Positions 5,288-63,903 of a DNA stretch of 64,000 nt are shown here, one piece after another (position 1 is the stretch's first letter; every line of letters begins with the position of its first letter). This DNA is from Deltaproteobacteria bacterium (GTDB lineage: Bacteria > Myxococcota_A > UBA9160 > UBA6930). The notes beneath the pieces are model-generated. The model made no database searches. It had not been told where the DNA came from and was given only the letters and a program-made list of their open reading frames with translations. Made by a program: the position numbers and the translations under genes. The DNA lies in the NCBI GenBank assembly GCA_016875395.1, contig VGRF01000001.1, forward strand, positions 95,921-159,920, written 5' to 3'.

Positions 5288-5303
5288 TAAGGGCGGGTTC
5301 CGC

Positions 5304-12428: not shown

Positions 12429-12445
12429 GCAAGCGGCGCATCGCC

Positions 12446-13218: not shown

Positions 13219-13242
13219 GACTTCGTCTCCGACGCGCGCCTG

Positions 13243-15025: not shown

Positions 15026-16900
15026 TCAACGCGCGCGCTCGGCGGCGGCCGCCTCGTGCATCGCGCGCTGGAGGCTCGCGCCGGCCCGGCGCGCGACGCG
15101 ATGCCACGCGCCGTCTTGATCGAGCTCCCAGGCGTGATCGTCGTCGCGCCGCGCGGCTTCGATCAGTGCATCGAGCCGGCGCTGGTGCGCCGGCGTCTCG
15201 ATCGGCACGAGCGCCTCGATTCGTTGCGAGAGGTTGCGGGTCATCAGGTCCGCGGATCCGATGAAATAGCGGTAGCCGCGCCGCTCCGAGCCGAAGCGGA
15301 AGATGCGCGAGTGCTCGAGGTAACGGCCGAGGATCGAGCGCACCGTGATGCGCTCGGAAAGGCCGAGCACGCCGGGTCGCAGGCAGCTGATCCCGCGCGA
15401 GACCAGCTCGATGCGCACGCCGGCGCGCGAGGCTTCGCAGAGCGCATCGATCATGGCGGCATCCTGGATGCCATTGACCTTGATGAACGCGCTGCCGTCT
15501 GGCTCGCGCATCTCGGCATCCAGCTGCTCGACGAGCGCGCTGCGCAGGTTGTGCGGCGCGACCAGCAGCTTCTCGTAGCTCGGCGCGCGCGAGAGGCCGG
15601 TGAGATGGTTGAAGAGCAGCGCGACGTCGCGGCCGATCTCGGGGGACGCGGTGAAGAGGCCGAGATCCTCGTACACGCGAGACGTCACCGGGTTGTAGTT
15701 GCCCGTGCCGATGTGCGAGTAGCGCTGCACGCCGCCGGGCTCTTCGCGCACCACCAAAGCGAGCTTCGCGTGCGTCTTCAGCCCGATCACTCCGTAGACG
15801 ACGTGCGCACCGGCGCGCTCGAGCAGCTGCGCGCGCTCGATGTTCGCGCGCTCGTCGAAGCGCGCGCGCAGCTCCACGACCACTGCGACTTCCTTGCCGG
15901 AGCGCGCGGCGTGACAGAGCGCGAGCACGACGGGGTTCTCGTTGCCAGAGGCGCGGTAGAGCGTGTGCTTGATGGCGCGCACGTGCGGATCGCGCGCGGC
16001 CTGCCACACGAACTCCTCGACCGAGCCGCGAAAAGACTCGTAGGGGTGGTGCACGAGCACGTCGCCGCGCTTCAGCACCGCAAAAAAATCCGGCGCGCGC
16101 TCGTGCTCCTCGCCGCGCAGCTGCGGAGGTTGCACGGGGACGAGCGAAGGGAACTTCAGCTCGGGTCGCTCGAGATTCGCGATCTCCCAGAGATCGCCGA
16201 GCTCGCCGAGCGCATGGAATTCATAGGTGTCGTCAACGCGCAGCCCGAGGTTTTCGCGCAGCAGCGCGCGCATGCCTTCGGGCATTTCGCGCTCGACCTC
16301 GAGACGCACTGGATGGTTCGTGCGCAGGCGGCGCTGCAGGCCCGAGGCGACGGCGTCGAGCAAGTCGTCGGCCTCGCCTTCATCGAGCTCGAGGTCGGCG
16401 TCGAGCGTCACGCGGAATGCGTGCTGCTCGAGGATGCGCATGCCGGGAAAGAGCAGATCGAGCTTCGCGGCGATCAGCTCCTCGATCGGCAGCAGCGGCT
16501 CGCCGCCGCCAAGCGCGATGAAGCGCGGCAGGTTCGGCGGCACCTTGACGCGCGCGAACGAGATCGCGCGCTGCTGCTCGGGGTTCTCGAGCCACACCCC
16601 GAGATTCAGCGAGAGGTTGGAGATCGCGGGAAACGGATGCGCGCTGTCGACGGAGAGCGGCGTGAGCACGGGCTCGACGTGGCTCTCGTAATAACTCGTC
16701 GCCGACTCGCGCGCGCTCGCGCCGAGGTCCTTCCAACTCGCGATGCGGATGCCGAAGCTCCCGGCGTCTACCTCTGGGACGAAGACCGCCACGAAGTCGA
16801 ACGCGCCGCCCGCGACCTCGCCGCCGGCCGTCAACCCGCCCGCCCCACCCGCCGCATGCTGATCATCCCGCTGCAAGAGATCGCAACAGCGATCAACCAT
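15026..16900 (-). CDS. ppk: Polyphosphate kinase 1, apparently N-terminally short (624 aa)
   Basis: PPK1 motifs: LTPLSVDSAHPFP, HIGTGNYN, YFIGSADLMTRNLSQRIE, and the two PLD-like C domains. Only about 45 aa precede the GIRIASWKDL segment, and no N-domain motifs are visible. Confidence 0.85.
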   Translation of the reverse strand: MVDRCCDLLQRDDQHAAGGAGGLTAGGEVAGGAFDFVAVFVPEVDAGSFGIRIASWKDLGASARESATSYYESHVEPVLTPLSVDSAHPFPAISNLSLNLGVWLENPEQQRAISFARVKVPPNLPRFIALGGGEPLLPIEELIAAKLDLLFPGMRILEQHAFRVTLDADLELDEGEADDLLDAVASGLQRRLRTNHPVRLEVEREMPEGMRALLRENLGLRVDDTYEFHALGELGDLWEIANLERPELKFPSLVPVQPPQLRGEEHERAPDFFAVLKRGDVLVHHPYESFRGSVEEFVWQAARDPHVRAIKHTLYRASGNENPVVLALCHAARSGKEVAVVVELRARFDERANIERAQLLERAGAHVVYGVIGLKTHAKLALVVREEPGGVQRYSHIGTGNYNPVTSRVYEDLGLFTASPEIGRDVALLFNHLTGLSRAPSYEKLLVAPHNLRSALVEQLDAEMREPDGSAFIKVNGIQDAAMIDALCEASRAGVRIELVSRGISCLRPGVLGLSERITVRSILGRYLEHSRIFRFGSERRGYRYFIGSADLMTRNLSQRIEALVPIETPAHQRRLDALIEAARRDDDHAWELDQDGAWHRVARRAGASLQRAMHEAAAAERAR

Positions 16901-16961
16901 TAGGGAACGCAGCGAACGGGAGGCGCCAACGCGCGGAGCACGATGGCTGACGCGCCGCCAC

Positions 16962-17081
16962 CCGAGCCAGATCGGCTCGGATGACGAACGCTACTCCCAA
17001 GCGGGTCGGCCGAGGCCGCAAGCGAAGCGCGCAGCTTTCCGCGGAGTCTTCGGAGCGGAAAGCGAAGTAAACAAGGAAGAG
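16962..17081 (-). repeat. R2 copy b: structured 3'-flank repeat
   Basis: The minus strand reads TTTACTTCG, hairpin CTTTCCGC[TCCGAAGACTCC]GCGGAAAG (17035-17062), then CTGCGCGCTTCGCTTGCGGCCTCGGCCGAC..GCTTGGGAGTAGCGTTCGTCATC..GATCTGGCTCGG. It lies between the ETF-QO stop and the ppk start. Confidence 0.8.
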
Positions 17082-17133
17082 CGCAAGCCCCGTTACTCAG
17101 ACCGCCCACAGAGGCCGCACACCTCGCCGCCGC

Positions 17134-33250: not shown

Positions 33251-35080
33251 ATGAGCGAGTTCGACGAATCTGGACGCAGCAGCCGTGGATTCTTGCGCCG
33301 CTTCGGCCCCGGGCGCGATGGCGAGGCCGAGGGAGAGCGCGAGCGGGAGCGCACGATGGCGCGCTCGCTCCAGGAGGAGGCCGAGGATCTGCGCGAGGCG
33401 CTGCGCTTCTTCGGCGGCGATTCCGCCGAGTTCCGCCGCCGCCTCGATCGCATCCTCGCGGAGTACGAGGCGCAGCGCCGGCGCGCGACGTTGCTGCGCG
33501 ATCAGCTCGGCGACGCCGAGCGCCAGAACGAGAAGCTCGTCGCGACGCTGCAAGAGGCGAAGCAGCAGATCGAGCTGCTGAAGGAAGAAGTCGACAAGCT
33601 GTGCGCGCCGCCGAACGGCTACGGCGTGTTCATCCGCAGCAACAAGGACAGCACGGCGGAGATCATCGTCGACGGCAAGGCGATGCGCGTGAACGTGCAT
33701 CCGAACGTCGACACCACGACGTTCGAGGAGGGTCAGCTCGTCGTCCTCAACGAGGCGTTCAACGTGGTCGAGGGCTCGGGCTTCACGCAGCGCGGCGAGA
33801 TCGTCTCGATCTCCGAGATTCTCGGCGACGGCCGCGCGGTGGTGCTCGGGCACACCGACGACGAGCGCGTCGTGACGCTCGCTTCGCCGCTGCGCCGCGA
33901 GCGCCTCAAGGTCGGCGACAACCTGCTCGTCGACACGCGCACGCAGTACGCGTTCGAGAAGATGCCGAAGAGCGCGGTGGAAGAAGTCGCGCTCGAGGAA
34001 GTTCCGGACGTCACCTACGACCAGATCGGCGGCCTCGGCGAGCAGGTGCAGATCCTGCGCGACGCGATCGAGCTGCCGTATCTGCACCCCGACGTGTTCG
34101 CGGAGCACAAGCTCCATCCGCCGAAGGGCATCCTGCTCTACGGGCCGCCCGGCTGCGGCAAGACGCTGATCGCGAAGGCCGTCGCGAACTCGCTCGCGAA
34201 GCGCATCGAAGAGCGCAGCGGCCGCCAGACGCCCGCGTACTTCCTCAACGTGAAGGGCCCAGAGCTCCTCAACAAGTACGTCGGCGAGACCGAGCACAAG
34301 ATCCGCGAAGTCTTCAAGCGCGCGCGCGAGAAGGCGAGCGAAGACGTGCCGGTGGTGATCTTCTTCGACGAGATGGACTCGCTGTTCCGCATGCGCGGAT
34401 CGGGCATCTCCTCGGACATGGAGGCCACCGTCGTCGCGCAGTTCCTGAGCGAGATCGACGGCGTCGAGTCGCTGAAGAACGTGATCGTGATCGGCGCGAG
34501 CAACCGGCAGGACCTGATCGATCCCGCGGTGCTGCGCCCGGGCCGCCTCGACCTCAAGGTGAAGGTGAGCCGCCCGGACAAGCAGGCCGCGTTCGAGATC
34601 TTCACGAAGTACTTCACGCCGGATCTGCCCATGCACGCGTCGATGACGTCGCGCTACGGCAGCGACCTCACGAGGGCCTGCGAGCAGATGCTGCGCGAGA
34701 CGATCGAGAAGATGTACTCGACGGGCGACGACAACAAGTTCCTCGAGGTCACGTACGCGAAGGGCGAGCGCGAGATCTTCTACTTCAAGGACTTCTCGAG
34801 CGGCGCGATGATCGAGAACATCGTGGCGCGCGCGAAGAAGATGGCGGTGAAGCGGTTGATCGACGCGGGCGAGCGCGGCATCAAGATCGACGACCTGCAC
34901 ACGGCGGTGCGGGACGAGTTCAAGGAGAACGAGGATCTGCCCAACACCACCAATCCTGACGACTGGGCGCGCATCTCCGGCCGCAAGGGCGAGCGCATCA
35001 TCAACGTGCGCACGCTCATCACGGGAATCAGCCGGAAGGAACGCTCCATCGAGAACGTCGACTCCGGTCAGTACCTGTAA
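33251..35080 (+). CDS. mpa: Proteasome-associated AAA+ ATPase Mpa/ARC
   Basis: N-terminal coiled coil (LVATLQEAKQQIELLKEEVDKLCAPPNGYG), OB domains, Walker A GPPGCGKT, Walker B VVIFFDEMD, and the C-terminal GQYL proteasome-docking motif. Confidence 0.95.
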   Translation: MSEFDESGRSSRGFLRRFGPGRDGEAEGERERERTMARSLQEEAEDLREALRFFGGDSAEFRRRLDRILAEYEAQRRRATLLRDQLGDAERQNEKLVATLQEAKQQIELLKEEVDKLCAPPNGYGVFIRSNKDSTAEIIVDGKAMRVNVHPNVDTTTFEEGQLVVLNEAFNVVEGSGFTQRGEIVSISEILGDGRAVVLGHTDDERVVTLASPLRRERLKVGDNLLVDTRTQYAFEKMPKSAVEEVALEEVPDVTYDQIGGLGEQVQILRDAIELPYLHPDVFAEHKLHPPKGILLYGPPGCGKTLIAKAVANSLAKRIEERSGRQTPAYFLNVKGPELLNKYVGETEHKIREVFKRAREKASEDVPVVIFFDEMDSLFRMRGSGISSDMEATVVAQFLSEIDGVESLKNVIVIGASNRQDLIDPAVLRPGRLDLKVKVSRPDKQAAFEIFTKYFTPDLPMHASMTSRYGSDLTRACEQMLRETIEKMYSTGDDNKFLEVTYAKGEREIFYFKDFSSGAMIENIVARAKKMAVKRLIDAGERGIKIDDLHTAVRDEFKENEDLPNTTNPDDWARISGRKGERIINVRTLITGISRKERSIENVDSGQYL

Positions 35081-35125
35081 GCGGCGGGCGGCTCGTGCCC
35101 GTCACCCGGAGTTCGTGGAGCGCCG

Positions 35126-36610
35126 ATGGCGATACCGAAGGTGATGGGCACCGAGATCGAGTTCGGAATTGCGGTCCAGAACGACCGCGATTTCGACCCG
35201 ATCTCGAGCTGCGTGCTGCTGGTGAACGCGTACCGCGAAGATCGCCTCGCGGGCATCCTGTGGGACTACGACCAGGAGAATCCCCTCGCCGACGCGCGCG
35301 GCTTCCAGGTCGACGGCGAGAAGTACACGCCGAACCAGCAAGAGAACATCGCGCGCAACAAGACGCTCGAGAACGGCGCGCGTTACTACGTCGACCACGC
35401 GCACCCCGAGTACTCGTGCCCGGAAGTGACGAACCCGCGCGAGCTCGTGATTCACGAGAAGGCCGGCGAGCGCGTGATCGAAATCTCGCGCCGCGAGGCG
35501 ACGCAGCTGCTTCCCGCCGGAACGCAGCTGCTCGTGCACAAGAACAACAGCGACCACAAGGGCAACAGCTACGGCTCGCACGAGAACTACTTGATGGACC
35601 GGCGCACGTCCTTCAAGCAGATCGTCGAGCACCTGATGCCGTTCTTCGTGACGCGCCAGGTCTACGCGGGCGCGGGCAAGGTGGGCAGCGAGAACCGCGC
35701 GCATCCGTGTCTGTATCAGCTCTCGCAGCGCTCGGACTTCTTCGAGACGGAAGTGGCGCTCGACACGATGGTGAAGCGCCCGATCATCAACACGCGCGAC
35801 GAGCCGCACGCCGACCGCGAGAAGTATCGGCGGCTGCACGTGATCGTCGGCGACTCGAACATGAGCGAGTACACGATCTGGCTGCGCCAAGGTGTTACGG
35901 CGATCGTGCTCTCGATGATCGAGGACGGCGCGATCGACCGCGACCTCACGCTGCGCGATCCGGTTCGCGCGATCAAAGAGGTGTCGCACGACATCTCGCT
36001 GAAGCGAACGATCGAGCTCAACTCGGGCAAGAAGCTCAGCGCGGTGCAGCATCAGCGCGAGTTCTACGCGCTCGCGAAGAAGTATCAGGCTGCGCGCGAG
36101 CTGCCGGCTTGGGCGCCCGAGATCATGGATGCGTGGCTCGACGTGCTCGACGCGCTCGAGCGCGATCCGCGCGAGCTCGCCGATCGCCTCGACTGGGTGG
36201 CGAAGCAGGCGATGATCGAGGCGTTCCTGGAGCGCAAGGGGCTCGATTGGGAATCGCCGCAGGCGCAGATGCTCGACCTGCAGTTCCACGACGTGCGGCC
36301 CGAGAAGGGCCTCGCGTATCTGCTCGAGCGGCAAGGCAAGCTGCGCAGGCTCGTCAGCGACGACGAGATCGTGCGCGCGATCACCGAGCCGCCCGAGGAC
36401 ACGCGCGCGTACTTCCGGGGTCAGTGCCTCAAGCGCTACGGTGAAGCGGTGTTCGGCGTGAACTGGGATTCGATCTCGTTCGGCATCGGCGACGAGCCGA
36501 TCAAGCGAGTGATGATGGCGGAACCGCTCAAAGGCTCGATGAAGCACGTCGAAGAGTTGCTCGACCGCTCGCCGACGGCGGCCGAGCTCGTGCGCAACCT
36601 GCGCACCTGA
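35126..36610 (+). CDS. dop: Pup deamidase/depupylase Dop (Pup-ligase family)
   Basis: MGTEIEFGI, YVDHAHPEYS, GNSYGSHENYLM, QLSQRSDF, INTRDEPHAD and YFRGQCLKRYG closely parallel mycobacterial Dop as I recall it. Position between mpa and pup. Confidence 0.9.
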   Translation: MAIPKVMGTEIEFGIAVQNDRDFDPISSCVLLVNAYREDRLAGILWDYDQENPLADARGFQVDGEKYTPNQQENIARNKTLENGARYYVDHAHPEYSCPEVTNPRELVIHEKAGERVIEISRREATQLLPAGTQLLVHKNNSDHKGNSYGSHENYLMDRRTSFKQIVEHLMPFFVTRQVYAGAGKVGSENRAHPCLYQLSQRSDFFETEVALDTMVKRPIINTRDEPHADREKYRRLHVIVGDSNMSEYTIWLRQGVTAIVLSMIEDGAIDRDLTLRDPVRAIKEVSHDISLKRTIELNSGKKLSAVQHQREFYALAKKYQAARELPAWAPEIMDAWLDVLDALERDPRELADRLDWVAKQAMIEAFLERKGLDWESPQAQMLDLQFHDVRPEKGLAYLLERQGKLRRLVSDDEIVRAITEPPEDTRAYFRGQCLKRYGEAVFGVNWDSISFGIGDEPIKRVMMAEPLKGSMKHVEELLDRSPTAAELVRNLRT

Positions 36611-36627
36611 CCTCCGAGGAGAACACC

Positions 36628-36894
36628 ATGATTCGCCGAAAGCACTCTCTCGCGAACGACGCGGACCTCGCGGGCTTCGGCGTCGCGCACGCCGCCGAGC
36701 AGCAGCAGAAGCAAAAGCAGGGCGGCGGCGAGGGTGAGGGCGGCGCACCGTCCGGCGAAGGCGGCAAGAAGCTCGCCAAGAAGGGCGAGGCGCTGAAGGA
36801 AGAGATGGACTCGCTGATGGACGAGATCGACAACGTGCTCGAAGAGAACGCCGAGGAGTTCGTGAAGAACTACGTCCAGCGAGGCGGCGAGTAG
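36628..36894 (+). CDS. pup: Prokaryotic ubiquitin-like protein Pup (88 aa, C-terminal GGE)
   Basis: C-terminal half EEMDSLMDEIDNVLEENAEEFVKNYVQRGGE matches the Pup helix and GGE tail. GAGGAG lies 7 nt upstream of the ATG. Confidence 0.92.
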   Translation: MIRRKHSLANDADLAGFGVAHAAEQQQKQKQGGGEGEGGAPSGEGGKKLAKKGEALKEEMDSLMDEIDNVLEENAEEFVKNYVQRGGE

Positions 36895-36940
36895 GTAGGC
36901 CGGAACGCCGCGAGCGGCCGCGGGGGGCGAGCCGAGCGCG

Positions 36941-37759
36941 GTGTTCGAACACGCTGGAGGGGGCGTGCAGTTCTGGGATGGCTACAAGGGCTCGAGCTTC
37001 CTCGAGCTTCTCGCGACGGATCATCCGCAGCTGCGGCCTGATCTCGGCGGCTTGATCTCGCAGATCGGCGCTGCGCCGAACGTTCCGCACGGCACGACCT
37101 GCCTCGGTCTTCGCTACGGCGACGGCGCGCTCGTCGCGGCCGATCGGCTTGCGACGATGGGTTATCAGGTCGCGAGCCGCGAGATCGAGAAGCTCTGGGT
37201 CACGGACAACACCTCCGTGATGGCGATCGCCGGCGCCGCGGGCCCCGCGATCGAGATGGCGCGCCTGATCGCCGTGCAATTCGAGCACCGCGAGAAGATC
37301 GAGGGCGAGCCGCTCGAGCTCGAGGGCAAAGCCAACACGCTCTCGCAGCTGATCCGGCAGAACCTGCCCGCCGCGATGCAAGGCCTCGCCGTGGTGCCGC
37401 TGTTCGCGGGCTACGACGCGCGTCGTCGCACGGGCCGCGTCTGGAAGTACGAGATCACCGGCGGACGCTACGAAGAGCGCGAGTACGAGTGCGTCGGCTC
37501 GGGCTCGATCTTCGCGCGCGAGTCGCTGAAGAAGAGCTTCCGCGCCGAGTCCTCGCGCGCCGACGCCGTGCTGATGGCGATCGAGGCGCTGAAGGACGCC
37601 GCGGACGAAGACCGCGCGACCGGCGGAGTCGACCTCGAGCGCGGCATCTTCCCGCGCGTGAAGACCTGCACCGCGCGCGGCGTCGAGGACGTCTCCGACG
37701 ACGAGATCGCGCAGGCCTACCAGCAAGTGCTCGAACGCCGCCGCCGCCCGCGCGGTTGA
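36941..37759 (+). CDS. prcB: 20S proteasome beta subunit
   Basis: 51-aa propeptide ending ..NVPHG, followed by TTCLGL. Thr1, Asp17 (AADR) and Lys33 (REIEK) are all present. GSGS motif. Confidence 0.95.
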   Translation: MFEHAGGGVQFWDGYKGSSFLELLATDHPQLRPDLGGLISQIGAAPNVPHGTTCLGLRYGDGALVAADRLATMGYQVASREIEKLWVTDNTSVMAIAGAAGPAIEMARLIAVQFEHREKIEGEPLELEGKANTLSQLIRQNLPAAMQGLAVVPLFAGYDARRRTGRVWKYEITGGRYEEREYECVGSGSIFARESLKKSFRAESSRADAVLMAIEALKDAADEDRATGGVDLERGIFPRVKTCTARGVEDVSDDEIAQAYQQVLERRRRPRG

Positions 37760-37834
37760 GGCGTCGAGCCGACGCAACTCCAACATCGCCCGTAACAAGA
37801 GGACCACGCCCCGCCCGAACGCGGCTCGAGAAGC

Positions 37835-37900
37835 CGCAAGCCGACCGAGCGAGCCCGCTCGCTCCGTCGGCGCGCAGCGAGGCGAAGCCGAGCGGAGAAT
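37835..37900 (+). repeat. 13-bp-stem hairpin plus R2-core motif in the prcB-prcA spacer
   Basis: CCGACCGAGCGAG-CCCG-CTCGCTCCGTCGG (37841-37870, one mismatch), followed by GCGCGCAGCGAGGCGAAGCCGAGCGGAG. Confidence 0.7.
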
Positions 37901-37908
37901 CGTAAGAG

Positions 37909-38604
37909 ATGGCGTTTCCGTTCTACGTGAACCCGGAGCAGATGACCGCCGAGAAGGCGGAGTACGCGCGCAAAGGCATCGCGCGCGGGCGATCGATCGT
38001 GACGCTCGAGTTCGGCGGCGGCGTGCTGATGGTCGGCGAGAATCCGCTCAAGCTGCAGAAGGTCGGCGAGATCTACGACCGCATCGCATTCGCCGGCGTC
38101 GGCAAGTTCAGCGAGTTCGATCGGCTGCGGAAAATGGGCATCCAGTGGGCCGACGTGGAGGGCTTCCGCTTCAGCCGCGACGACGTGCGCGGCAAGGCAC
38201 TCGCGAACCTCTACTCGCAGGTGCTCGGCGAAGAGTTCACGCGTTCGATCAAGCCGTTCGAAGTGGAGATCGTGGTCGCGGAGGTCGGCGACGAGAATCT
38301 CGCGGGCCACGAGAAGAACGCGCTCTACAAGATCGGCTTCGACGGCACGATCCAGGACCAAGAAGGCTTCATCGTGATCGGCGGCAGCGTCGACAACCTC
38401 CAGAGCCACATGAACACGCACTTCCGCGCGGGCCTCTCGCTCGGCGCCGCGTTGAAGCTCGGCCGCGACGCGCTGCAGCGCGCAGAGAACGGAAACCCCG
38501 ACCTCGGCGCGCGGCACCTCGAAGTCGCGCTGCTCGATCGCGCGCGCACCGGCCGCAAGTTCCGCCGCCTCGCGCAGAACGAAATCTCCCAGCTCCTGTC
38601 CTGA
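37909..38604 (+). CDS. prcA: 20S proteasome alpha subunit
   Basis: MAFPFYVNPEQMTAEKAEYARKGIARGRSIV.. is alpha-subunit-like at the N-terminus. 231 aa, immediately after prcB. Confidence 0.92.
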   Translation: MAFPFYVNPEQMTAEKAEYARKGIARGRSIVTLEFGGGVLMVGENPLKLQKVGEIYDRIAFAGVGKFSEFDRLRKMGIQWADVEGFRFSRDDVRGKALANLYSQVLGEEFTRSIKPFEVEIVVAEVGDENLAGHEKNALYKIGFDGTIQDQEGFIVIGGSVDNLQSHMNTHFRAGLSLGAALKLGRDALQRAENGNPDLGARHLEVALLDRARTGRKFRRLAQNEISQLLS

Positions 38605-38679
38605 CGGCGCGCGCCCGCAGCGCAGCGGCAACTTCGCTGCGATGCTGTGCAAGTCGCCCGCGCGACGTGCCGATGAGCG

Positions 38680-40119
38680 ATGGGTACATTCGCCAAACCG
38701 GGGCGAGGGTCTGTGCAAAAGCGCATCTACGGCGTCGAGACCGAGTACGGAATCATCTTCACGCCCGAGGGGCGGAAGACGCTGCCCGTCGAGAAGGCGA
38801 TCCGCTTCCTGTTCGAGAAGCTGATCACCACCGAGCACTTCCTCAACGTCTTCCTCGAGAACGGCGCGCGCTTCTACCAGGACACTGGCTGCCACCCCGA
38901 ATACGCGACGCCCGAGTGCGCGTCGCCGCGCCAGCTGATCGTGTACGACAAGGCCGGCGAGCGCATTCTCGAAGAGCTGCAGGACTACGCCGAAGAAAAG
39001 ATCCGCGAGGAGCGCATCGCGGGGAAGCTCTCCATCTTCAAGAACAACACCGACTTCGTCGGCAACAGCTACGGCTGCCACGAGAACTACCTCGTCGACC
39101 GCGACGTCGACTTCTACTACCTCGCCGAGCAGCTGATCCCGTTCCTCGTGACGCGCCAGATCTACGCCGGCGCGGGCAAGGTGTTCCAGACGCAGGAAGG
39201 CGTGCATTACTGCGTCAGCCAGCGCGCGCAGCACATCTATCAGAAGATCAGCGGCACCACGACGAACGACCGCTCGATCATCAACACGCGCGACGAGCCC
39301 CACGCCGACCGCGAAAAGTTCCGCCGCCTGCACGTGATCGTGGGCGACTCGAACATGTCGGAGTACACGAACTTCCTGAAGATCGGCGCGTGCGCCGTCG
39401 TGCTCCAGATGATCGAGGACAACTACATCAACAAGGACTTCACCCTGCGCAATCCGGTGAAGGCCATCAAGGACATCTCGTACGACACGACTTGCAAGCG
39501 CAAGCTGCGCCTCGACAACGGGCGCGAGTATTCGCCGATCGAGATTCAGCGCGAGTACTGCGAGATGGCGCAGAAGTACGTCGAGCAATACCCGGTCTCC
39601 GACGAGCTGAAGCAGTCGGTCGTGATGTGGCAGCACGTGCTCGACTGCCTCGACACCGACCCCGACAAGCTCGATCGCCAGATCGACTGGGTGATCAAGC
39701 GGCGCCTGATCGAGAACTGGATCCAGGGCCACGACTCGCGCTGGAGCGATCCGCGCGTGTTCATGCTCGATCTGCAGTACCACGATCTGCGCATGAACCG
39801 CGGGCTCTACTACTTGTTGGAGCGCAAGGGCGCGGTGGAGCGAATTCTCACCGACGAAGAAGTGGACAAGGCGAAGACCGAGCCGCCGCCGGATACGCGC
39901 GCGAAGATGCGAGGCGAGTTCATCAAGCTCGCGCGCCAGAACGGGATCCAATACGACCTCGACTGGTCGAACATCCGCCTCGGCAACCTGCTGAACGTGC
40001 GCGTGATCTGTAACAACCCGTTCGAGACGGATACCGAGAAGGTCGCCGAGCTCGTGCGCACGATTCAGAAGACGAACCTCAGGAAGACATCGTTGAGCAA
40101 GCTCGTGATTCAGAGCTGA
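38680..40119 (+). CDS. pafA: Pup--protein ligase PafA
   Basis: RIYGVETEYGI, GCHPEYATPEC, GNSYGCHENYLV, CVSQRAQHI, INTRDEPHAD and DWVIKRRL parallel mycobacterial PafA. The exact start is uncertain (ATG 38680). Confidence 0.9.
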   Translation: MGTFAKPGRGSVQKRIYGVETEYGIIFTPEGRKTLPVEKAIRFLFEKLITTEHFLNVFLENGARFYQDTGCHPEYATPECASPRQLIVYDKAGERILEELQDYAEEKIREERIAGKLSIFKNNTDFVGNSYGCHENYLVDRDVDFYYLAEQLIPFLVTRQIYAGAGKVFQTQEGVHYCVSQRAQHIYQKISGTTTNDRSIINTRDEPHADREKFRRLHVIVGDSNMSEYTNFLKIGACAVVLQMIEDNYINKDFTLRNPVKAIKDISYDTTCKRKLRLDNGREYSPIEIQREYCEMAQKYVEQYPVSDELKQSVVMWQHVLDCLDTDPDKLDRQIDWVIKRRLIENWIQGHDSRWSDPRVFMLDLQYHDLRMNRGLYYLLERKGAVERILTDEEVDKAKTEPPPDTRAKMRGEFIKLARQNGIQYDLDWSNIRLGNLLNVRVICNNPFETDTEKVAELVRTIQKTNLRKTSLSKLVIQS

Positions 40120-40158
40120 TGCGCGATTCCGAGTACTGACGGTCTTCGAGGTTCGCTT

Positions 40159-40280
40159 TTCTCCTCGTTGACTCCGCAAACCGCTCCGCGGACTCCGCGG
40201 TTTGCTGCGCGCTTCGCTTGCGGCCTCGGCCGACTCGCTTGGGAGTAGCGTTCGGCTTCGGGGTTGATCTGGCGGCTCGG
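40159..40280 (+). repeat. R2 copy c: structured 3'-flank repeat
   Basis: TTGACTCCG, hairpin CAAACCGC[TCCGCGGACTCC]GCGGTTTG (40177-40204), then CTGCGCGCTTCGCTTGCGGCCTCGGCCGAC..GCTTGGGAGTAGCGTTCGG..GATCTGGCGGCTCGG. Begins 40 nt after the pafA stop. Confidence 0.8.
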
Positions 40281-40600
40281 CGAACGCGTCGCGCGGTTGA
40301 AAGACTCACCGAGGCGGGCATCCATTGCAGCGGCTCCGCCGTTGCATCGAAGCGGAGTTGGTCGCGCGCATCACGCGTACGCAAGTTGCGTGCATCGCTT
40401 GCGCATGCGCGGTTGCGCTCCGACGGAGCGTGGCGGCTGGCTGCGTGATGGCTCGCACCGACGGAGTGCGTGAGCGGGCGCGGGTCGCAGTGGGGCGGCA
40501 GAAAAGTCGCGCTGAGCGAGCAGCGAGCGCTCAACTCGCGGCGCATCGCGCCGATACGGAACGAGGCCGGAGCGCTGCGCCTTCACTCCGAGAGGATTTC

Positions 40601-41635
40601 ATGCTCGACTCGCTGATGGGGTGGCTCTCGAACGATCTCGCCATCGATCTCGGCACGGCGAACACGCTCGTGTACGCGAAGGGCAAAGGTCTCATCTGTT
40701 CGGAGCCGTCCGTGGTGGCGGTGACGTCGGATCCGACGGGGCGCGGCGACAAGGTGCTCGCGGTCGGCCACGAAGCGAAGGAGATGCTCGGGCGCACGCC
40801 GGGCTCGATTCGCGCGGTGCGCCCGATCAAGGACGGCGTGATCGCCGACTTCGAGATCACCGAAGCGATGCTCCGCTACTTCATCGCGCGCGCCAACAAC
40901 AAGCGCCGCCTGGCGCGCCCGCGCATCGTGATCTGCGTGCCGCCCTGCATCACCAGCGTCGAGAAGCGCGCCGTGCGCGAGTCCGCGATGTCGGCCGGCG
41001 CGCGCGAAGTGTTCTTGATCGAGGAGCCGATGGCCGCGGCGATCGGCGCCGGCCTCGACGTGACCGCACCTACGGGCAACATGGTCGTCGACATCGGCGG
41101 CGGCACCACGGACGTCGCCGTGATCTCGCTCTCCGGCATCGTCTGCTCGCGCTCGATCCGCTGCGGCGGCGACGCGATGGACGAGGCCGTCATCAACTAC
41201 GTGAAGCGCAAGTACAACATGCTGATCGGCGAGCGCACCGCGGAGTCGGTGAAGATGGCGATCGGCACCGCTTCGCCGACGGCGAAGACCGAGACGATGG
41301 AGATCAAGGGCCGCGACCTCGTCGCCGGCATCCCGAAGGTCGTCGTCACCACCAGCGAAGAGATCCGCGAGGCGCTGCAGGAGCCGCTCGCGCAGATCGT
41401 CGAGACCGTGCACCTCACGCTCGAGCGCACGCCCCCGGAGCTCGCGGCCGACATCGTCGATCGCGGCATCATGCTCGTCGGCGGCGGCTCGATGCTGAAG
41501 GATCTCGACACCGTGCTGCGCCAGGAGACGAAGCTGCCGATTCTGCGCAGCGAGGATCCGTTCACGGCGGTCGTCTACGGCGCTGGCAGAGCGCTGGACA
41601 ACCTGGATCTGCTGAAAGAGGTCGCGATTCCGTAG
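40601..41635 (+). CDS. mreB: Rod-shape-determining actin homologue MreB
   Basis: The real start is ATG 40601, after GAGAGG. Motifs: DLGTANTLVY, IEEPMAAAIGAGL, VVDIGGGTTDVAVISL, GIMLVGGGSML. Confidence 0.95.
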   Translation: MLDSLMGWLSNDLAIDLGTANTLVYAKGKGLICSEPSVVAVTSDPTGRGDKVLAVGHEAKEMLGRTPGSIRAVRPIKDGVIADFEITEAMLRYFIARANNKRRLARPRIVICVPPCITSVEKRAVRESAMSAGAREVFLIEEPMAAAIGAGLDVTAPTGNMVVDIGGGTTDVAVISLSGIVCSRSIRCGGDAMDEAVINYVKRKYNMLIGERTAESVKMAIGTASPTAKTETMEIKGRDLVAGIPKVVVTTSEEIREALQEPLAQIVETVHLTLERTPPELAADIVDRGIMLVGGGSMLKDLDTVLRQETKLPILRSEDPFTAVVYGAGRALDNLDLLKEVAIP

Positions 41636-41914
41636 GCGCGTGTGACCCCGGGCGGGGACTGCCTCGTCCAGATTCCCCGTGCTTCGCCCGCCTCCGCGCC
41701 CTCCGGCCCGCTGCGCGCCGAGTTACGCATCAGGCTCTCGCCTGCGCGGCGCTCGCGGCTTGCTGCACACACCCTGCTCCGCGCCGAACTGATCTGGTTC
41801 CGCAACGACGACGCGGGTGCGCACGACGAGGTCCTCGCGTACACCGCCGGCCGGCGCACGCTCAGAGGCGCGATCCCGTTGCGTCGTGATACTAATGCCG
41901 CCGGGAGGTCGACC

Positions 41915-43166
41915 ATGACGACCGGTGCCGAGGGCTCTGCTCTCCCGTGGGTCGAGGCCATCGCCCGTTCCTTCGAGCCGATTGCGTTCGACGCCTTCCA
42001 CCGCGATCGGCTGCCCGCGCTCGTCGCGCGCCACGGCTCCCTCGTCGCTCGGGACCTCGACGGCGCCGCCCCGCTCGCGTTTCGCGTCGGCTCTGGCGCG
42101 GCGTACACCTGGTTGCCGTCGCCCGATGGTCTGCGCGTCGCCGTCGGCGATGCGGCCGCCGAGACCGTCGTCGCGCTCGACGAGCGAGTCTTCTCGGAGT
42201 TCGTCCACCAGCTGGTCACGGCCTCGGGTGCCGTCATGACAGGGCGCGCGTCGCTCGTGCGCGGGAGCCTGGCGGGCTGGCAGCGCTTCGAGCCCGCGCT
42301 CCAGTCGCTGTGCGAGGGGCGCGAGATCTACGGCCCTCGCGTCTGGGAGACCCTCGTCGACCGCGACGGCAAGCCGCTCGACCTGCGCCGCCGCTTCTCG
42401 GTCGACGACGACCGCGAGGAGCTGCGCCACTTCTTCGAGGTGGCGGGCTATCTGCATCTGCGCGCCGTGTTCCGCCCCGACGAGGTCGAGCGATTCGGGC
42501 GCGAGGTCGAGCACGCGAGGTCGAAGACGACACCGGGGGATCCGTTCTCGTGGTGGTCCGTCGACGCGAGCGGGCGCGAGGTGGTGACGCGAATCAACTA
42601 CCTGGGCCGGCACTCGCCCGAGCTCCAGGCACTCTCCCACGATCCGCGGCTGGCGCGTTTTGCGCGGCTCGCCGGCGAGACGCTCCGCGTCTGCGACGAC
42701 CGGCTCGATGGGCCGATGGTCTTCATCAAGAACTCGAACGTCGTCAAAGGCAACGGCGATCTCGGCTGGCACGTGGACGATGGAATCGGGGGCCACCAGG
42801 TGATGTGCCCGCTGATCCAGGCAGGCATCCAGCTCGATCGCGCCAATCCCGAGAACGGCCAGCTCAAGGTGCTCGCCGGCTCCCATCGCTACTCGAAGCA
42901 TTGGATCGGCTGGGGCGAGGAAGGCAACTTGCCGGACGTCGCTCTCGAGACCGAGCCCGGCGACCTCACGCTCCACTTCGGCGATGCCATGCACGCACAC
43001 GACGCCGCCAACGACCGGACCGGACGCCGGTCGGCGAGCGCTCTACTACAAGTTCGCCGAGCCGAAGACCTTCGATTGGATTCCGGCAGCCTGTCACTAC
43101 AACGACGCGCTCTTCCGGCCGGACGCCAGCGGCCGGACGGCGAGTCGAGCCGCGACAGAAAACTGA
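41915..43166 (+). pseudogene. Phytanoyl-CoA dioxygenase (PhyH)-family Fe(II)/2OG oxygenase with an apparent +1 frameshift near 42995
   Basis: ATG 41915 follows GGGAGG. GWHVDDG (His/Asp facial triad) and LTLHFGDAMH in one frame continue as TTPPTTGPDAGRRALYYKF.. in the next frame (track ORF 42984..43166). The 555-aa track ORF runs on in the wrong frame. Confidence 0.7.
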
Positions 43167-43241
43167 CCCGCGAACGAGGCGATCGCGGCCTCCCGTCGCT
43201 CTCCGTCCGCACGGCGCGTAGCGCGGCGAGAGAACGCGCCC

Positions 43242-44255
43242 TCAACGCCTCTCGCGCCTCAGCTGCCAGCGGTTCACGGCGTTCACGTGGTCGCGGTAGT
43301 TCGTCGTGAACTCGTGCGTGCCGTCGCCGCGCGCAACGAAGAAGAGGAACTCGACGCCGGGTGTCGGCTCCACCGCGGCGCGCAGTGAGGCGAGGCCGGG
43401 GTTGGCGATCGGGCCCGGGGGCAGCGCGGGGATGCGGTAGGTGTTGTACGGGTTGGTTTCGTCTTCGAGGTGGATGCGGCGCAGGTTGCCGTCGAAGTTC
43501 GGGATGCCGTAGATCACCGACGGGTCGGTCTCGAGACGCATGCGCTTGCCGAGTCGGTTGTGGAAGACGGCGGAGATCAGCGGGCGCTCCTCGGGCGCGC
43601 CCGTCTCCTTCTCGATCAGCGAGGCGAGGATCACGACGTCGCGCTTCGCCATGCCGCGCTTCTGAGCGAGCGGCGCGACTTCAGCCCAGGCGCGATCGAA
43701 CTGCGCGAGCTGCGCCTCGATCACTTCGCGCGCGCCGGCGCCGCGCGGGAAGCGATAGGTCTCGGGAAACAGGAAGCCCTCGAGCGTGTCGCCGGGCACG
43801 CCGTGTTCTTTCGCGACCGCCGGGTCGCGCGCGAGCGTGGCGTAGTCGCTCGCTGAACCGAAGCCTGCGTCGGCGACGCGCTGCGCGATCTCGACGAGCG
43901 TGAGGCCCTCGGGGATCGCGACGCCGTGCAGGCGCACACGGCCCGAGACGAGCAGGTCGAGCACCGCGCGCGCGTCGAGCCCGGGCTCGATCTGGTACTC
44001 GCCGACCTTGAGCGCGCCGTCTTTCTTCTCGATGCGCGCGAGCCAGCCGAACGCGCGCGCGTCGCGGATCACGCCCTGCGCTTCGAGCTGCGCGGCGACG
44101 GAGCGAAACGAGGCGCCGCTCGGCACCTCGACGATCGCGGCTTCGCTGCGCCCCGGCGCGCGGAGGGACTCGCGCCACCAGCGCTGCGCGACGACGACAG
44201 CGAGCGCAGCGCCGAGCAGCACGAGCAGCGCCAGTGCGGCGAGCGCGCGCTTCAC
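43242..44255 (-). CDS. mltG: Endolytic murein transglycosylase MltG (YceG-like)
   Basis: N-terminal TM helix, EGFLFPETYRF, NTYRIPALPPGPIANPG. Confidence 0.9.
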   Translation of the reverse strand: MKRALAALALLVLLGAALAVVVAQRWWRESLRAPGRSEAAIVEVPSGASFRSVAAQLEAQGVIRDARAFGWLARIEKKDGALKVGEYQIEPGLDARAVLDLLVSGRVRLHGVAIPEGLTLVEIAQRVADAGFGSASDYATLARDPAVAKEHGVPGDTLEGFLFPETYRFPRGAGAREVIEAQLAQFDRAWAEVAPLAQKRGMAKRDVVILASLIEKETGAPEERPLISAVFHNRLGKRMRLETDPSVIYGIPNFDGNLRRIHLEDETNPYNTYRIPALPPGPIANPGLASLRAAVEPTPGVEFLFFVARGDGTHEFTTNYRDHVNAVNRWQLRRERR

Positions 44256-52128: not shown

Positions 52129-54768
52129 GTGTCCGCGCCGCGCTCTGCTCACGACATCCGCGAAAGCTTCCTCGCGTTCTTCGAGTCGAAGGGGCACACC
52201 CGCGTCGCGAGCGCGTCGCTCGTTCCCAGCGACCCGACGCTGCTGTTCACGAACGCGGGCATGGTGCCGTTCAAGCGCGTGTTCACGGGTGAGGAGACGC
52301 GGCCGTACAAGCGCGCGACCACGACGCAGAAGGTCATGCGCGTGTCGGGCAAGCACAACGACCTCGAGGAGGTCGGCCGCAGCGCGCGCCACCACACCTT
52401 CTTCGAGATGCTCGGGAACTTCTCGTTCGGCGACTACTTCAAGCACGAGGCGATCGAGTTCGCGTGGGAGCTGATTACGCAGCACTGGAAGCTCGAGCCG
52501 AAGGACCTCGTGGTCTCGGTGTTTCGCGAGGACGACGAGGCGGCTGCGATCTGGGAGCGCGAGATCGGCGTCCCCGCTTACAAGATCTATCGGCTCGGCG
52601 AGAGCGAGAACTTCTGGCAGATGGGCGACACCGGGCCGTGCGGCCCTTGCACCGAGATCCACATCGATCGGGGCGAGATCGCGGGGGTGCCGAACGACGA
52701 CCCCTCGAGCGCCTCGGGCCGCTTCCTCGAGTTCTGGAACCTCGTGTTCATGCAGTTCAACCGCGACGCGAGCGGCAAGCTCACGCCGCTGCCGAAGCCC
52801 TCGGTGGATACGGGCGCCGGGCTCGAGCGCGTGGCGCAGGTGCTGAACGGCTTCCGTAACAACTACGAGACCGACCTGTTCACGCCGATCCTGGCTCACG
52901 CGCAGTCGCTCTCGGGCGTGAGGCTCGGCCGCGCCGCGGAGAGCGACGTCTCGCTGAAGGTCGTCGCGGATCACGCACGCGCCGTCACGTTCATGATCGG
53001 CGACGGCGTGCTGCCCGCGAACGAGGGCCGCGGCTACGTGCTGCGCCGCATCCTGCGCCGTGCGGCGCGCCACGGCGTCTTGTTGGGGCTCGATCGCCCG
53101 TTCCTGCACGAAGTCTCGAACACCGTGATCGACGAGATGTCGCGCGCGTTCCCGGAGCTCGCCGAGCGCCGCGCCTACATCACGAGCCGCGTGCGCCGCG
53201 AGGAGGAGCGCTTCCTCGCCACGCTGAAGAGCGGCCTCGCGCTGCTGAACGACGAAGTCGCCGCGCTGAAGGCGAAGGGCGGCACGACGCTGCCCGGCGC
53301 CGTCGTGTTCCGGCTCTACGACACGTTTGGCTTCCCCGTCGATCTCACGCAGGACGTGCTGAAGTCGCATGCGATGACCGTCGACGAGGCGGGCTTCGCG
53401 AGCGAGATGGAGACGCAGCGCGCGCGTTCGCGCGAGCACTGGAAGGGCAGCGGCGACACGGGCGTGGCGCAGATCTATGGACGCATCGCCGCGGACGTCG
53501 CGACGGAGTTCACGGGCTACGACACGCTCAGCGGCGAGTCCCGCGTGCGCGCGCTGCTCGTGAACGGCGCGCCGGTCGACGCCGCGAGCGAAGGCGCCGA
53601 GGTGGAGATATCCGTCGACGAGACGCCCTTCTACGCCGAGAGCGGCGGCCAAGTCGGCGACCGCGGCGTGATCGAGAGCGACGCCGCGCGCATCGAGATC
53701 ACCGACACGCAGCGCCCGAGCGGCCAGCTCGTGATGCACCGCGGCCGCGTCGCGCGCGGCACGCTGCGCGCGGGCGACGCGGTGCGCCTCGCGGTCGACG
53801 CCGAAGCGCGCGCGGCCACGGTCCGGAATCACTCGGGCACGCATCTCCTTCACGCGGCGCTGCGCGAAGTCGTGGGTCCGCAGGCGATGCAGAAGGGCTC
53901 GCTCGTCGCGCCCGATCGCCTGCGCTTCGACTTCACGAACGACGCGCCGCTGAGCGAGGTGGAGATCGAGCGCATCGAGGATCTCGTGAATCGCTGGATC
54001 GAGGCGAATGACGGCGGGCGCACACGGCAGATGGCGTACAAGGAGGCCATCGCGGCCGGCGCCATGGCGCTGTTCGAGGAGAAGTACGGCGACGAGGTGC
54101 GCGTCGTGTCTTTCGGCGGCGTCTCGACCGAGCTGTGCGGCGGCACGCATGCGAAGGCGACGGGCGACATCGGGCTGCTGAAGATCATCAGCGAGTCCGG
54201 CATCGCCGCGGGGGTTCGGCGCATCGAGGCGCTGACGGGCCTCGGCGCCCTCGCGCACCTGCGCGCGCAAGAGAAGAAGCTGCGGCGCGTGAGCGAGGCG
54301 CTGAAGGTGCCGGCGGATCAGGTGGGCGATCGCGTCGAGAAGCTGCTCGACGAGCGCAAGGCGGCGGAGAAGCAGATCGCGGAGCTGAAGCGCGCGCAGT
54401 TCTCGGGCGGCGCGCAGAGCGCGGCGCAGACGCGCGAGATCGCCGGCGTGCAGGTGCTCGTGCGCCGCGCGGACGGCCTCGGCGGGAACGATCTGCGCGG
54501 GCTCGTCGACGATCTGCGCGGGCAAGTGAAGAGCGGGATCGTGCTCGTCGCTTCGAGCGAAGAGGGCAAGGTGGCGCTCGCGCTCGGCGTGAGCCCCGAT
54601 CTCAAGGACAAGCTCAAGGCCGGCGACCTCGTGCGCGAGATCAGCGCGGTGGTCGGCGGCAAGGGCGGTGGGCGGCCCGACTTCGCGCAGGGCGGCGGCA
54701 CCGACGCCGCGAAGCTCGATGCCGCGATCGAGCGCCTCTTCGCGCTCGTGGGCGAGGCGCGCGCCTAG
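52129..54768 (+). CDS. alaS: Alanine--tRNA ligase
   Basis: FTNAGM, HHTFFEMLGNFSFGDYFK, FWNLVFMQFN, editing motifs HSGTHLLH and CGGTH, C-terminal DHHA1-like GGKGGGRPDFAQGGG. GTG start at 52129. Confidence 0.95.
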   Translation: MSAPRSAHDIRESFLAFFESKGHTRVASASLVPSDPTLLFTNAGMVPFKRVFTGEETRPYKRATTTQKVMRVSGKHNDLEEVGRSARHHTFFEMLGNFSFGDYFKHEAIEFAWELITQHWKLEPKDLVVSVFREDDEAAAIWEREIGVPAYKIYRLGESENFWQMGDTGPCGPCTEIHIDRGEIAGVPNDDPSSASGRFLEFWNLVFMQFNRDASGKLTPLPKPSVDTGAGLERVAQVLNGFRNNYETDLFTPILAHAQSLSGVRLGRAAESDVSLKVVADHARAVTFMIGDGVLPANEGRGYVLRRILRRAARHGVLLGLDRPFLHEVSNTVIDEMSRAFPELAERRAYITSRVRREEERFLATLKSGLALLNDEVAALKAKGGTTLPGAVVFRLYDTFGFPVDLTQDVLKSHAMTVDEAGFASEMETQRARSREHWKGSGDTGVAQIYGRIAADVATEFTGYDTLSGESRVRALLVNGAPVDAASEGAEVEISVDETPFYAESGGQVGDRGVIESDAARIEITDTQRPSGQLVMHRGRVARGTLRAGDAVRLAVDAEARAATVRNHSGTHLLHAALREVVGPQAMQKGSLVAPDRLRFDFTNDAPLSEVEIERIEDLVNRWIEANDGGRTRQMAYKEAIAAGAMALFEEKYGDEVRVVSFGGVSTELCGGTHAKATGDIGLLKIISESGIAAGVRRIEALTGLGALAHLRAQEKKLRRVSEALKVPADQVGDRVEKLLDERKAAEKQIAELKRAQFSGGAQSAAQTREIAGVQVLVRRADGLGGNDLRGLVDDLRGQVKSGIVLVASSEEGKVALALGVSPDLKDKLKAGDLVREISAVVGGKGGGRPDFAQGGGTDAAKLDAAIERLFALVGEARA

Positions 54769-54960
54769 AACCCGTCTCAGAATTCCGGACCGAGCCCGGC
54801 GCGCGGGTTTGGCCGGCTGGCGAGGCGCGCGAGCGAAGGCGTATCAAAAGATACTTCGAGCGAAGCGCAAGCGGAGCGCGCAGCGAGCCGGAGGCGAGCG
54901 GAGTCGAAAGCGAGAGCAAGCCAGCCGGGCAAAGACGCGCGCCCGGCGAAGGGAGGAATT

Positions 54961-54973
<13 letters not shown>
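54768..54973. repeat. R1 copy B: 206-bp palindromic MITE-like element carrying a roughly 45-bp R2-core insert
   Basis: GAACCCGTCTCAGAATTCC ... GGAATTTTGAGCCGGGTTC. Collinear with copy A apart from the insert GCGGAGCGCGCAGCGAGCCGGAGGCGAGCGGAGTCGAAAGCGAGAGCAA. Confidence 0.85.
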
Positions 54974-56991
<2,018 letters not shown>

Positions 56992-60493: not shown

Positions 60494-60610
60494 CCTCGCT
60501 GCGCGCTTCGCTGCCGCGTTGGCCTTCGCTCGCTGCGCCTCGCTGCGCGCTCCGCTTGCGCCGTTGGCCTCGCTCGATTGCACCGCGCCGCGCGCTCCGC
60601 TTGCCAGTCG
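60494..60610. repeat. Tandem array (about 2.7 x 44-45 bp) of the R2 core motif
   Basis: CCTCGCTGCGCGCTTCGCTGCCGCGTTGGCC (60494), CCTCGCTGCGCGCTCCGCTTGCGCCGTTGGCC (60538) and GCGCGCTCCGCTTGCCAG (60590), all in the bamD-TPR spacer. Confidence 0.75.
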
Positions 60611-63843: not shown

Positions 63844-63903
63844 AGTTTTTTCCGCGAGCTCCCTAATCACTCAGCAATCAGCTTCGAAGACTGGAGAACG
63901 ACC

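Follow-up and report, generated by a model that had tools for sequence, protein, structure and literature searches.

R2, a previously uncatalogued gene-end repeat with a co-varying hairpin in uncultured Myxococcota-labelled bacteria, is probably a REP- or MITE-like DNA element

We describe here R2, a short repeat lying just 3' of genes in a stretch of 64,000 nucleotides from a Deltaproteobacteria bacterium (contig VGRF01000001.1, positions 95,921 to 159,920), hereafter called the window. R2 is a real, previously uncatalogued family of dispersed repeats, limited to a clade of uncultured GC-rich bacteria publicly labelled Myxococcota or “Deltaproteobacteria”. On balance, R2 is probably a selfish or semi-domesticated repeat of the kind formed by repetitive extragenic palindromes (REPs) and bacterial interspersed mosaic elements (BIMEs), or by miniature inverted-repeat transposable elements (MITEs), recognised through its hairpin at the DNA level. 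It is ordinary in kind and new in its detail and host lineage.

A full R2 unit measures about 145-175 nt (about 110-175 nt across the family), from a T-rich block to a tail near ..GCGTCAG.CATCGAGG; this is longer than the 100-130 nt proposed in a preliminary description made from the letters alone. From 5' to 3' come a frequent locus-specific GC-rich hairpin, Block 1, the hairpin HP1, Block 2, a 3' module and a loose tail. Block 1 reads TtTTCCTTGTT(T/G)ACTTCGC (core TTCCTTGTT(T/G)ACTTCGC) and is the T-richest stretch in these 70% GC spacers; Block 2 reads GCTGCGCGCTTCGCTTGCG, and GCTGCGCGC, with no T-run, stands directly 3' of HP1. Both blocks are invariant across nearly all copies, and HP1 is flanked by ..ACTTCGC and GCTGCGCGC.. 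in all of them. The 3' module of the window's lineage is GCCTCGGCCGAC-NNG-CTTGGGAGGAGCGTTCG, different modules being found elsewhere, and the tail (..CTTCGAGGTCGTTCTGG..GGCGCGTCAG.CATCGAGG) is looser. HP1 comes in three main stem types, namely 9 bp with a 12-nt loop, 9 bp with one T·C mismatch and a 10-nt loop, and 7 bp with a TC/CT internal loop, two of the three thus holding a fixed pyrimidine·pyrimidine mismatch; it mostly spans 26-30 nt, with short forms of 16-17 nt (3-nt loop) and rare ones of up to 38 nt. The loop, at first thought to be conserved throughout, is kept as TCCGRRGACTCC or TCGRRGACTC in the main subfamilies; in some lineages it is AGGA, AAG or UUC instead, or the flanks enclose an unrelated stem-loop, and about half of the loops contain GGA or AGGA. 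Two further structures were considered and dropped: a consistent tail hairpin (a CTGGCG..CGTCAG stem is present in some copies, the folds being heterogeneous) and an end-to-end pairing of Block 1 with GGGAG..AGCG (68% paired, with no pair changed on both sides).

A profile built from the three window copies and searched against the window returned exactly three strong matches (E 9e-34 to 4e-30), the next best having an E value of 0.012; a covariance model (CM), scored separately, gave the three copies 95-123 bits. The R2 copies and fragments of the window are as follows:

13237 to 13381, + strand: R2 copy 1, 3' of phoU and facing ppx; profile match 13237-13344, E 3.6e-30; CM 95 bits
Parts of copy 1: Block 1 at 13243-13262, HP1 at 13261-13288, Block 2 and 3' module up to 13337
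Ending at 13381, + strand: tail hairpin TCTGACG..CGTCAGA of copy 1
16941 to 17088, - strand: R2 copy 2, 3' of ETF-QO; profile match 17088-16978, E 9e-34; CM 123 bits
40151 to 40314, + strand: R2 copy 3, between pafA and mreB; profile match 40151-40261, E 2.6e-31; CM 116 bits
54834 to 54918, - strand: degenerate R2 5' module with a short hairpin, GCTCGCC-TCC-GGCTCGC plus GCTGCGCGCTCCGCTTGC; CM 21 bits, E about 0.02
12442 to 12481, - strand: antisense R2 fragment in the pstB-phoU spacer; profile E 0.012; CM 12.4 bits, E about 1.3, marginal
60495 to 60610, + strand: three Block-2-like fragments in a row (CTCGCTGCGCGCTTCGCT, CTCGCTGCGCGCTCCGCTTGCG, GCGCGCTCCGCTTGCC) with no full copy; CM 8.5-12 bits, E 1.5-9

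The three full copies, which align over about 130-190 nt, had been placed at these sites by the preliminary description, and their hairpins are as it described them and at about the distances it gave: HP1 starts 42 nt after the stop codon of phoU, 70 nt after that of ETF-QO and 56-57 nt after that of pafA, the identities of the three genes being confirmed with Pfam. In copy 1, HP1 has the stem GCATCGGCC/GGCCGCTGC with a single T·C mismatch and the loop TCGAAGACTC; in copy 2 (17034-17063, -), the stem GCTTTCCGC / GCGGAAAGC and the loop TCCGAAGACTCC; in copy 3 (40176-40205), the stem GCAAACCGC / GCGGTTTGC and the loop TCCGCGGACTCC. Copy 2 is fixed in six metagenome contigs of the window's population. 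Core fragments of R2 had also been reported from further sites, and they are indeed non-random: the 12-mer CTCGCTGCGCGC occurs seven times in the window (at 12446, 26212, 37870, 54876, 60495, 60539 and 63696) vs 0.83 expected, a count reached in none of 100 shuffles. As copies of R2, only the module at 54834-54918 (-) comes near significance, the fragment at 12446-12478 (-), within the longer interval listed above, being marginal. That fragment is a hairpin of the TC/CT-mismatch stem type, as found in soil metagenome-assembled genomes (MAGs), plus CTCGCTGCGCGC. The 12-mer itself corresponds to the 3' arm and the start of Block 2 of the TC/CT-internal-loop stem type, a type that none of the three full copies has; a second R2 subfamily has thus left remnants dispersed among the spacers of the window.

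Outside the window, an exact 20-mer of the conserved block gave 25 matches in a set of species-representative genomes, 18 of them due to chance and seven being loci with real copies, from five soil MAGs labelled Deltaproteobacteria or Myxococcota and one MAG labelled Spirochaetales. The window's own genome is not in that set; the window belongs to JGI contig Ga0194121_10000100 (136.7 kb). A degenerate pattern of the 5' module retrieved 62 metagenome loci. Across the collected loci, the profile gave 89 matches, of which 72 are unique (from about 60 metagenome and MAG loci), and the covariance model gave 92. The close homologues of the window's ETF-QO are named “Myxococcota bacterium” by NCBI, and a search of viral contigs yielded zero copies. 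The comparison with Rfam, which the preliminary description had proposed, returned no credible family at gathering thresholds or at E up to 10, the best sub-threshold match being Scr6925 (24 bits vs 50); when tail-to-tail doublets of R2 were submitted, long-hairpin miRNA models alone matched, far under threshold.

The stem of HP1 is maintained by compensatory change. We used two alignments, A3, made with MAFFT from 44 full copies, and A5, a structure-aware, hairpin-only alignment of 82 distinct copies. In A3, HP1 is 96% paired, seven of its nine pairs have changed on both sides and the remaining two are invariant; none of 500 shuffles reaches the observed covariation, and sliding the partners as a control leaves 38-60% paired. 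In A5, 83.8% of the cells are paired vs 63.7% in shuffles, covariation is 0.261 vs 0.061 (again reached in 0 of 500 shuffles), and slid partners are 26-56% paired. The TTT/AAA to AAA/TTT swap with full compensation, from which co-variation had been proposed, is present in the alignment of the three window copies, and the proposal holds in this larger sample. The stems fall into 35 haplotypes, of which 13 are perfectly Watson-Crick; among 656 stem cells, 548 are Watson-Crick, 2 are G·T, and 97 are T·C or C·T at fixed positions. Functional RNA helices normally hold a noticeable share of G·U pairs; the near absence of G·U, together with the mismatch conserved between pyrimidines, agrees with protein recognition of the hairpin as DNA. 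Folding of the whole element brought no gain over shuffles on either strand (z -0.8 to +0.9). Over 49 copies, the sense strand folds at -71.3 vs -64.1 kcal/mol for the antisense strand, an advantage that is due to the T-richness of the sense strand (T 39.5 vs A 18.1 per copy, making it U-rich as RNA) and vanishes in z-scores (-0.79 vs -0.84). Covariation does not demonstrate an RNA function of the R2 hairpin; more generally, compensatory stem changes in a multi-copy palindrome are, alone, insufficient evidence for a functional RNA.

Nearly all R2 copies sit in spacers, close behind genes. For copies with an upstream gene on their own strand, the gap between its stop codon and the element has a median of 35 nt (interquartile range 25-48), and the window copies begin 19-46 nt past the stop codons. 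Gene orientations were taken from our own GC3-based caller with repeats masked, and the site counts are approximate:

Co-directional spacers, sense R2: 19 sites (18 once window copy 2 is reassigned as convergent)
Co-directional spacers, antisense R2: 10 sites
Convergent spacers, single units or same-orientation arrays: 15 sites
Convergent spacers, tail-to-tail doublets: 5 sites
Divergent spacers: 4 sites

The location just after stop codons claimed in the preliminary description thus generalises to a preference for gene 3' ends (20 convergent vs 4 divergent spacers, p = 0.0015). Its claim that copies lie in the sense orientation reduces to a tendency: orientation can be read in co-directional spacers only, and the excess of sense copies there (18-19 vs 10) does not reach significance (p = 0.14). 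Of the three window copies, copy 1 occupies the convergent phoU / ppx spacer and copy 2 probably lies in a convergent one as well, because a small + strand open reading frame (ORF), whose C-terminus is conserved in five relatives, ends at 16903; the pafA copy alone is thus informative on orientation. The 45 nt upstream of Block 1 fold at -16.3 kcal/mol vs -12.7 kcal/mol in controls (45 nt, 60 nt further upstream; p = 3e-5), with z < -1.5 in 30% of these regions vs 5% of controls, and clear upstream hairpins finish 0-9 nt (mostly 0-3 nt) before the T-tract. These hairpins are not part of R2, since their sequences differ from locus to locus; either R2 tends to land, or to persist, just past terminator stems, or such stems are completed by its T-rich edge. 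A simple terminator scan found a single terminator-like match, a weak stem at 17078-17091 that leads into the T-rich Block 1 of copy 2 as its T-tail. There is no sigma-70-like promoter around any copy and no T-run behind HP1.

R2 comes and goes rapidly between relatives. At locus L049, pafA is 92% identical at the nucleotide level, and its pafA-mreB spacer is without R2, homology ending exactly at the stop codon. The site 3' of ETF-QO varies likewise among six relatives (given with their amino acid (aa) identity):

Window population: full R2 unit
L094, 92% aa identity: altered 5' half only
L095, 89% aa identity: nothing
L096, 87% aa identity: a 70-nt long palindrome (Block 1, hairpin, reverse Block 1)
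L097, 82% aa identity: nothing
L098, 81% aa identity: nothing
L099, 75% aa identity: nothing

The three occupied ETF-QO sites have three different stems. Presence and absence at orthologous sites, as expected of a mobile repeat, are therefore seen at both the pafA and the ETF-QO spacers. Around mreB, we also observed that in L049 (6150-6409, -) this gene is followed by a 168-nt tandem duplication made up of its TAG stop, 60 nt of flanking sequence and one R2 5' module, and that the window gene at 41642-43309, next after mreB (comparison point 41635-41642), is missing in L049. R2 copies coincide with synteny breakpoints 3' of mreB and at phoU|ppx.

Composite forms are found as well. Tail-to-tail doublets were found in five convergent spacers, with a constant size (289-316 nt) and different stems in the two arms; they are a minority form (5 of 66 sites), most sites holding single units or same-orientation arrays. 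In arrays with a 110-nt period (L071 1573-1901, L029, L085, L065/L040, L077 and L053), R2 5' modules alternate with a strong 13-bp GC hairpin, TTCGCCGACGCG...CGCGTCGGCGAA, that abuts the T-rich Block 1, and these arrays look like chains of terminator-like units. R2 can also be nested: of the two window copies of another repeat, R1, the one at 54765-54975 is interrupted by a 46-nt insert, which corresponds in reverse complement to an R2 5' module with a short hairpin, and the one at 5124-5289 is without it. R1 is itself a palindromic MITE-like element with terminal inverted repeats of about 21 nt (TAGAACCCATCTCAGAATTCC ... GGAATTCTGAGATGGGTTCTA) that begins on the TAG stop of the upstream gene; its two copies are 93% identical over 106 nt.

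We also considered window copies 1 and 2 as the arms of a single doublet split by ppk-ppx, and dropped this in view of the conserved small ORF at 16754-16903. The “ppk” ORF next to it (15026-16900, -) is without the PP_kinase N-terminal domain, and roughly its first 50 codons overlap, in antisense, the conserved C-terminus of the small ORF (16700-16903, +). That C-terminus shares 67-69% aa identity with ORFs of 65-84 aa in L094 and L095, and a 10-residue match only in L097 and L098. The relatives are without ppk-ppx between ETF-QO and phoU, which makes for an apparent rearrangement junction beside two R2 copies.

How does R2 compare with known repeats? Like REPs, BIMEs and REPINs (paired REPs), it is built on a short, imperfect palindrome whose flanks are conserved on both sides, has many extragenic copies mostly downstream of genes, forms inverted doublets, long palindromic singlets, arrays and mosaics, is patchy among relatives and has A/T-rich edges (PMC3337134; PMC3733652). 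In the Pseudomonas REPINs of Bertels and Rainey, doublets, long palindromic singlets arising by loss of the centre and variable spacers keeping a hairpin were described, and A/T edges were taken to suggest co-option as terminators (PMC3337134). Most REPs are defined by a tetranucleotide tag, GTAG or CGTC, left unpaired beside the palindrome on one side (PMC3733652). R2 has the 20-40 nt imperfect, extragenic, multi-copy palindrome of a REP; it differs in its far longer conserved flanks (15-31 nt), its larger unit (110-175 nt), its doublets of about 310 nt vs about 90-110 nt for REPINs, and its highly variable palindrome sequence (35 haplotypes), which in REPs is family-specific. Furthermore, the inverted doublet, the main form of REPINs, accounts for 5 of 66 R2 sites. 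MITEs such as Correia/NEMIS, ERIC, RUP and MITEAba12 resemble R2 in being non-coding, 100-200 nt long, dispersed in spacers and variably present among relatives; a further common point is that they can bear regulatory signals and form folded transcripts. Unlike in MITEs, the constrained structure of R2 is an internal hairpin and not the ends.

The invariant flanks, the stem conserved in its pairing only, the fixed mismatch, the home at gene ends, the rapid turnover and the mosaics and doublets lead us to place R2 with REPs, BIMEs, REPINs and miniature transposons. This placement is functional: R2 fails the formal tests of each of these families. From these features, we infer that the structure acts in DNA, as well as the likely kind of enzyme that moves it. 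Blocks 1 and 2 clamp a hairpin that keeps complementarity only, and the whole would form the site of a structure- and sequence-specific protein. The hairpin would form in single-stranded DNA and serve as a handle for a trans-acting enzyme, of the HUH/tyrosine-transposase kind (REP-associated tyrosine transposase (RAYT) or IS200/IS605) or an analogous one, that copies or recombines the unit. Copies gather at gene 3' ends, which tolerate them, and, with Block 1 very often directly after a locus-specific GC hairpin, R2 sits on or completes a terminator-like site. Diversification could proceed by tandem duplication, formation of tail-to-tail doublets, collapse to long palindromes and microhomology-mediated module swapping; if R2 also affects mRNA 3' ends, it would do so only secondarily. 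A bolder version, which we hold to be unlikely, is that R2 is a mobile, selfish, single-stranded-DNA “gene-end cassette” forming a REP-like superfamily of its own: an enzyme would read the hairpin, the pyrimidine mismatch and the two blocks and home to the T-tract side of terminator hairpins, R2 thereby supplying or replacing terminators. As the GTAG/CGTC tag is absent, this enzyme would not be a classical RAYT.

Several observations weigh against a REP- or MITE-like DNA repeat. No GTAG or CGTC tag stands beside the R2 hairpin, GTAG occurring by chance in some 3' modules. Single units have neither terminal inverted repeats nor target-site duplications; no consistent direct repeat flanks single units or doublets, and the recurrent CGAGG near both ends belongs to the conserved sequence. 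No clean pair of filled and empty sites with alignable flanks was found, the pafA and mreB spacers being too diverged or rearranged. RAYT- and IS200-type probes (tblastn) and a scan for the MPNH.H HUH motif gave no match in 770 kb; this is a weak test, since such transposase genes are usually single-copy and the probes were hand-written. The genes found between nearby R2 copies are ordinary housekeeping ones, namely truB, rpsO, dprA and one for a GIDA-family protein. The preliminary description had named a match to a known insertion-sequence end or REP family as an outcome that would tell against its reading, and turnover, doublets, arrays and nesting do point to a REP/MITE-like DNA repeat. 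The covariation is itself ambiguous. In quasipalindrome mutagenesis, template switching can “correct” palindromes, so perfect compensation may arise mechanically, which would also fit the R2 pair spectrum; covariation alone is thus no proof of selection by a protein. Lastly, two observations fit an RNA role: full-length copies alone are about 15 sense vs 5 antisense in co-directional spacers, and a small TTCG..CGAG stem holds one conserved U·G pair.

These last points belong to the principal alternative, possible if rather unlikely in our view, in which R2 works as RNA at mRNA 3' ends, where its hairpin and conserved blocks would terminate transcription, hold off 3' exonucleases or bind a protein. 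It would be co-transcribed with the gene before it and owe its spread to this usefulness, a mobile origin being compatible with that. The proximity to stop codons, both in the window and in the family median, speaks for it, as do the convergent-over-divergent preference, the excess of sense copies, the U-rich sense strand, the GGA or AGGA in about half of the loops, and the frequent presence, in convergent spacers, of one sense copy per gene. So does the layout of a T-rich Block 1 right behind a GC hairpin, which is that of an intrinsic terminator: in about 30% to a third or more of the copies, such a locus-specific GC-rich hairpin stands directly before Block 1. However, the repeat lies downstream of that point, and termination at Block 1 would leave most of the element untranscribed; HP1 is followed by GCTGCGCGC and no U-tract, and more than 100 conserved nt are unneeded for termination. 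The orientation bias falls short of significance, with 10 antisense copies and 4 in divergent spacers; only 2 of 656 stem cells are G·U; z-scores are equal on the two strands and near zero for the whole element; and orthologous copies decay or vanish at 87-92% protein identity, the loop being swapped in some lineages. Given the paucity of G·T pairs and the equal strand z-scores, co-variation does not by itself lead to an RNA or a protein-recognised RNA hairpin, and no promoter and no T-run behind HP1 speak for a terminator or a small RNA (sRNA). REPs act at both the DNA and the RNA level, and the DNA-repeat and RNA 3'-end readings of R2 are not mutually exclusive.

That R2 derives in miniature from an IS200/IS605-type element, or another rolling-circle HUH element, with HP1 as the left-end hairpin and TT(T/G)AC as the cleavage or target motif, seems to us quite improbable. 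IS608 TnpA uses a TTAC site and hairpin irregularities, of which the TTTAC or TTGAC conserved just 5' of a structure-conserved hairpin with a fixed mismatch is reminiscent by analogy; irregular hairpins with adjacent short motifs, a TTAC-like motif in 5' and the lack of terminal inverted repeats and target duplications are shared by R2 and the ends and miniature derivatives of IS200/IS605. The motif, however, stands 5 nt 5' of HP1 but within a conserved 19-nt block: at least 14 nt upstream of TTKAC are also conserved, so it is internal and not a flanking target. In addition, R2 has no consistent right-end hairpin, occurs in both orientations within 27 kb of the window, and thus without replication-strand bias, and no tnpA- or tnpB-like gene was seen among the genes between nearby copies or in the weak 770-kb probe scan. 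We regard as essentially excluded the idea that R2 is an independent sRNA gene, a short coding sequence or an integron-type attC site. The TTGACT of Block 1 resembles a -35 box, two window copies have an ATG-led ORF on the reverse strand, and conserved flanks around a sequence-variable, structure-conserved hairpin behind genes are attC-like. Against this, no promoter-like site was found, for which reason an independent promoter/sRNA unit was dropped, and the sole terminator-like match is the weak stem upstream of copy 2; 1-nt indels and a hypervariable triplet break the reading frames, and ATG is missing in most copies, so a protein-coding reading was likewise dropped. Blocks 1 and 2 do not complement each other as R''/R' boxes (RYYYAAC / GTTRRRY) would, the copies stand behind scattered housekeeping genes with no cassette arrays, and nothing in Rfam matches.

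If R2 is indeed a REP- or MITE-like repeat acting in DNA, it would represent a third style of REP-like repeat, with long invariant flanks around a freely co-varying stem holding a fixed mismatch, and its 35 stem variants within one pair of flanks would be a natural data set on what a structure-reading DNA enzyme needs. To our knowledge, no REP-like elements have been described in this phylum. In these MAGs, R2 is a marker of gene 3' ends and of synteny breakpoints, and it is a possible lineage marker in metagenomes. Repeats of this type can also seed false gene calls in high-GC MAGs: spurious antisense ORFs span R2 copies in the window (40079-40546, -, 155 aa; 12601-13593, -), and in relatives, metagenome gene callers annotate ORFs of 56-84 aa within or beside R2-bearing spacers.

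Two other features of the window may be mentioned. A complete Pup-proteasome cluster lies at 33251-40119 (+), encoding an Mpa/ARC-type AAA ATPase, a Dop-like Pup ligase, an 88-aa Pup, two proteasome subunits and PafA; this system is best known from Actinobacteria and Nitrospirae, and it stands here in a lineage whose relatives are labelled Myxococcota. Finally, a tRNA-Gln (anticodon TTG) at 63769-63843 (+) is the window's only Rfam or ARAGORN match, and the motif TCGAAGACT, which resembles the R2 loop, is found 30 nt downstream of it (63874-63882).

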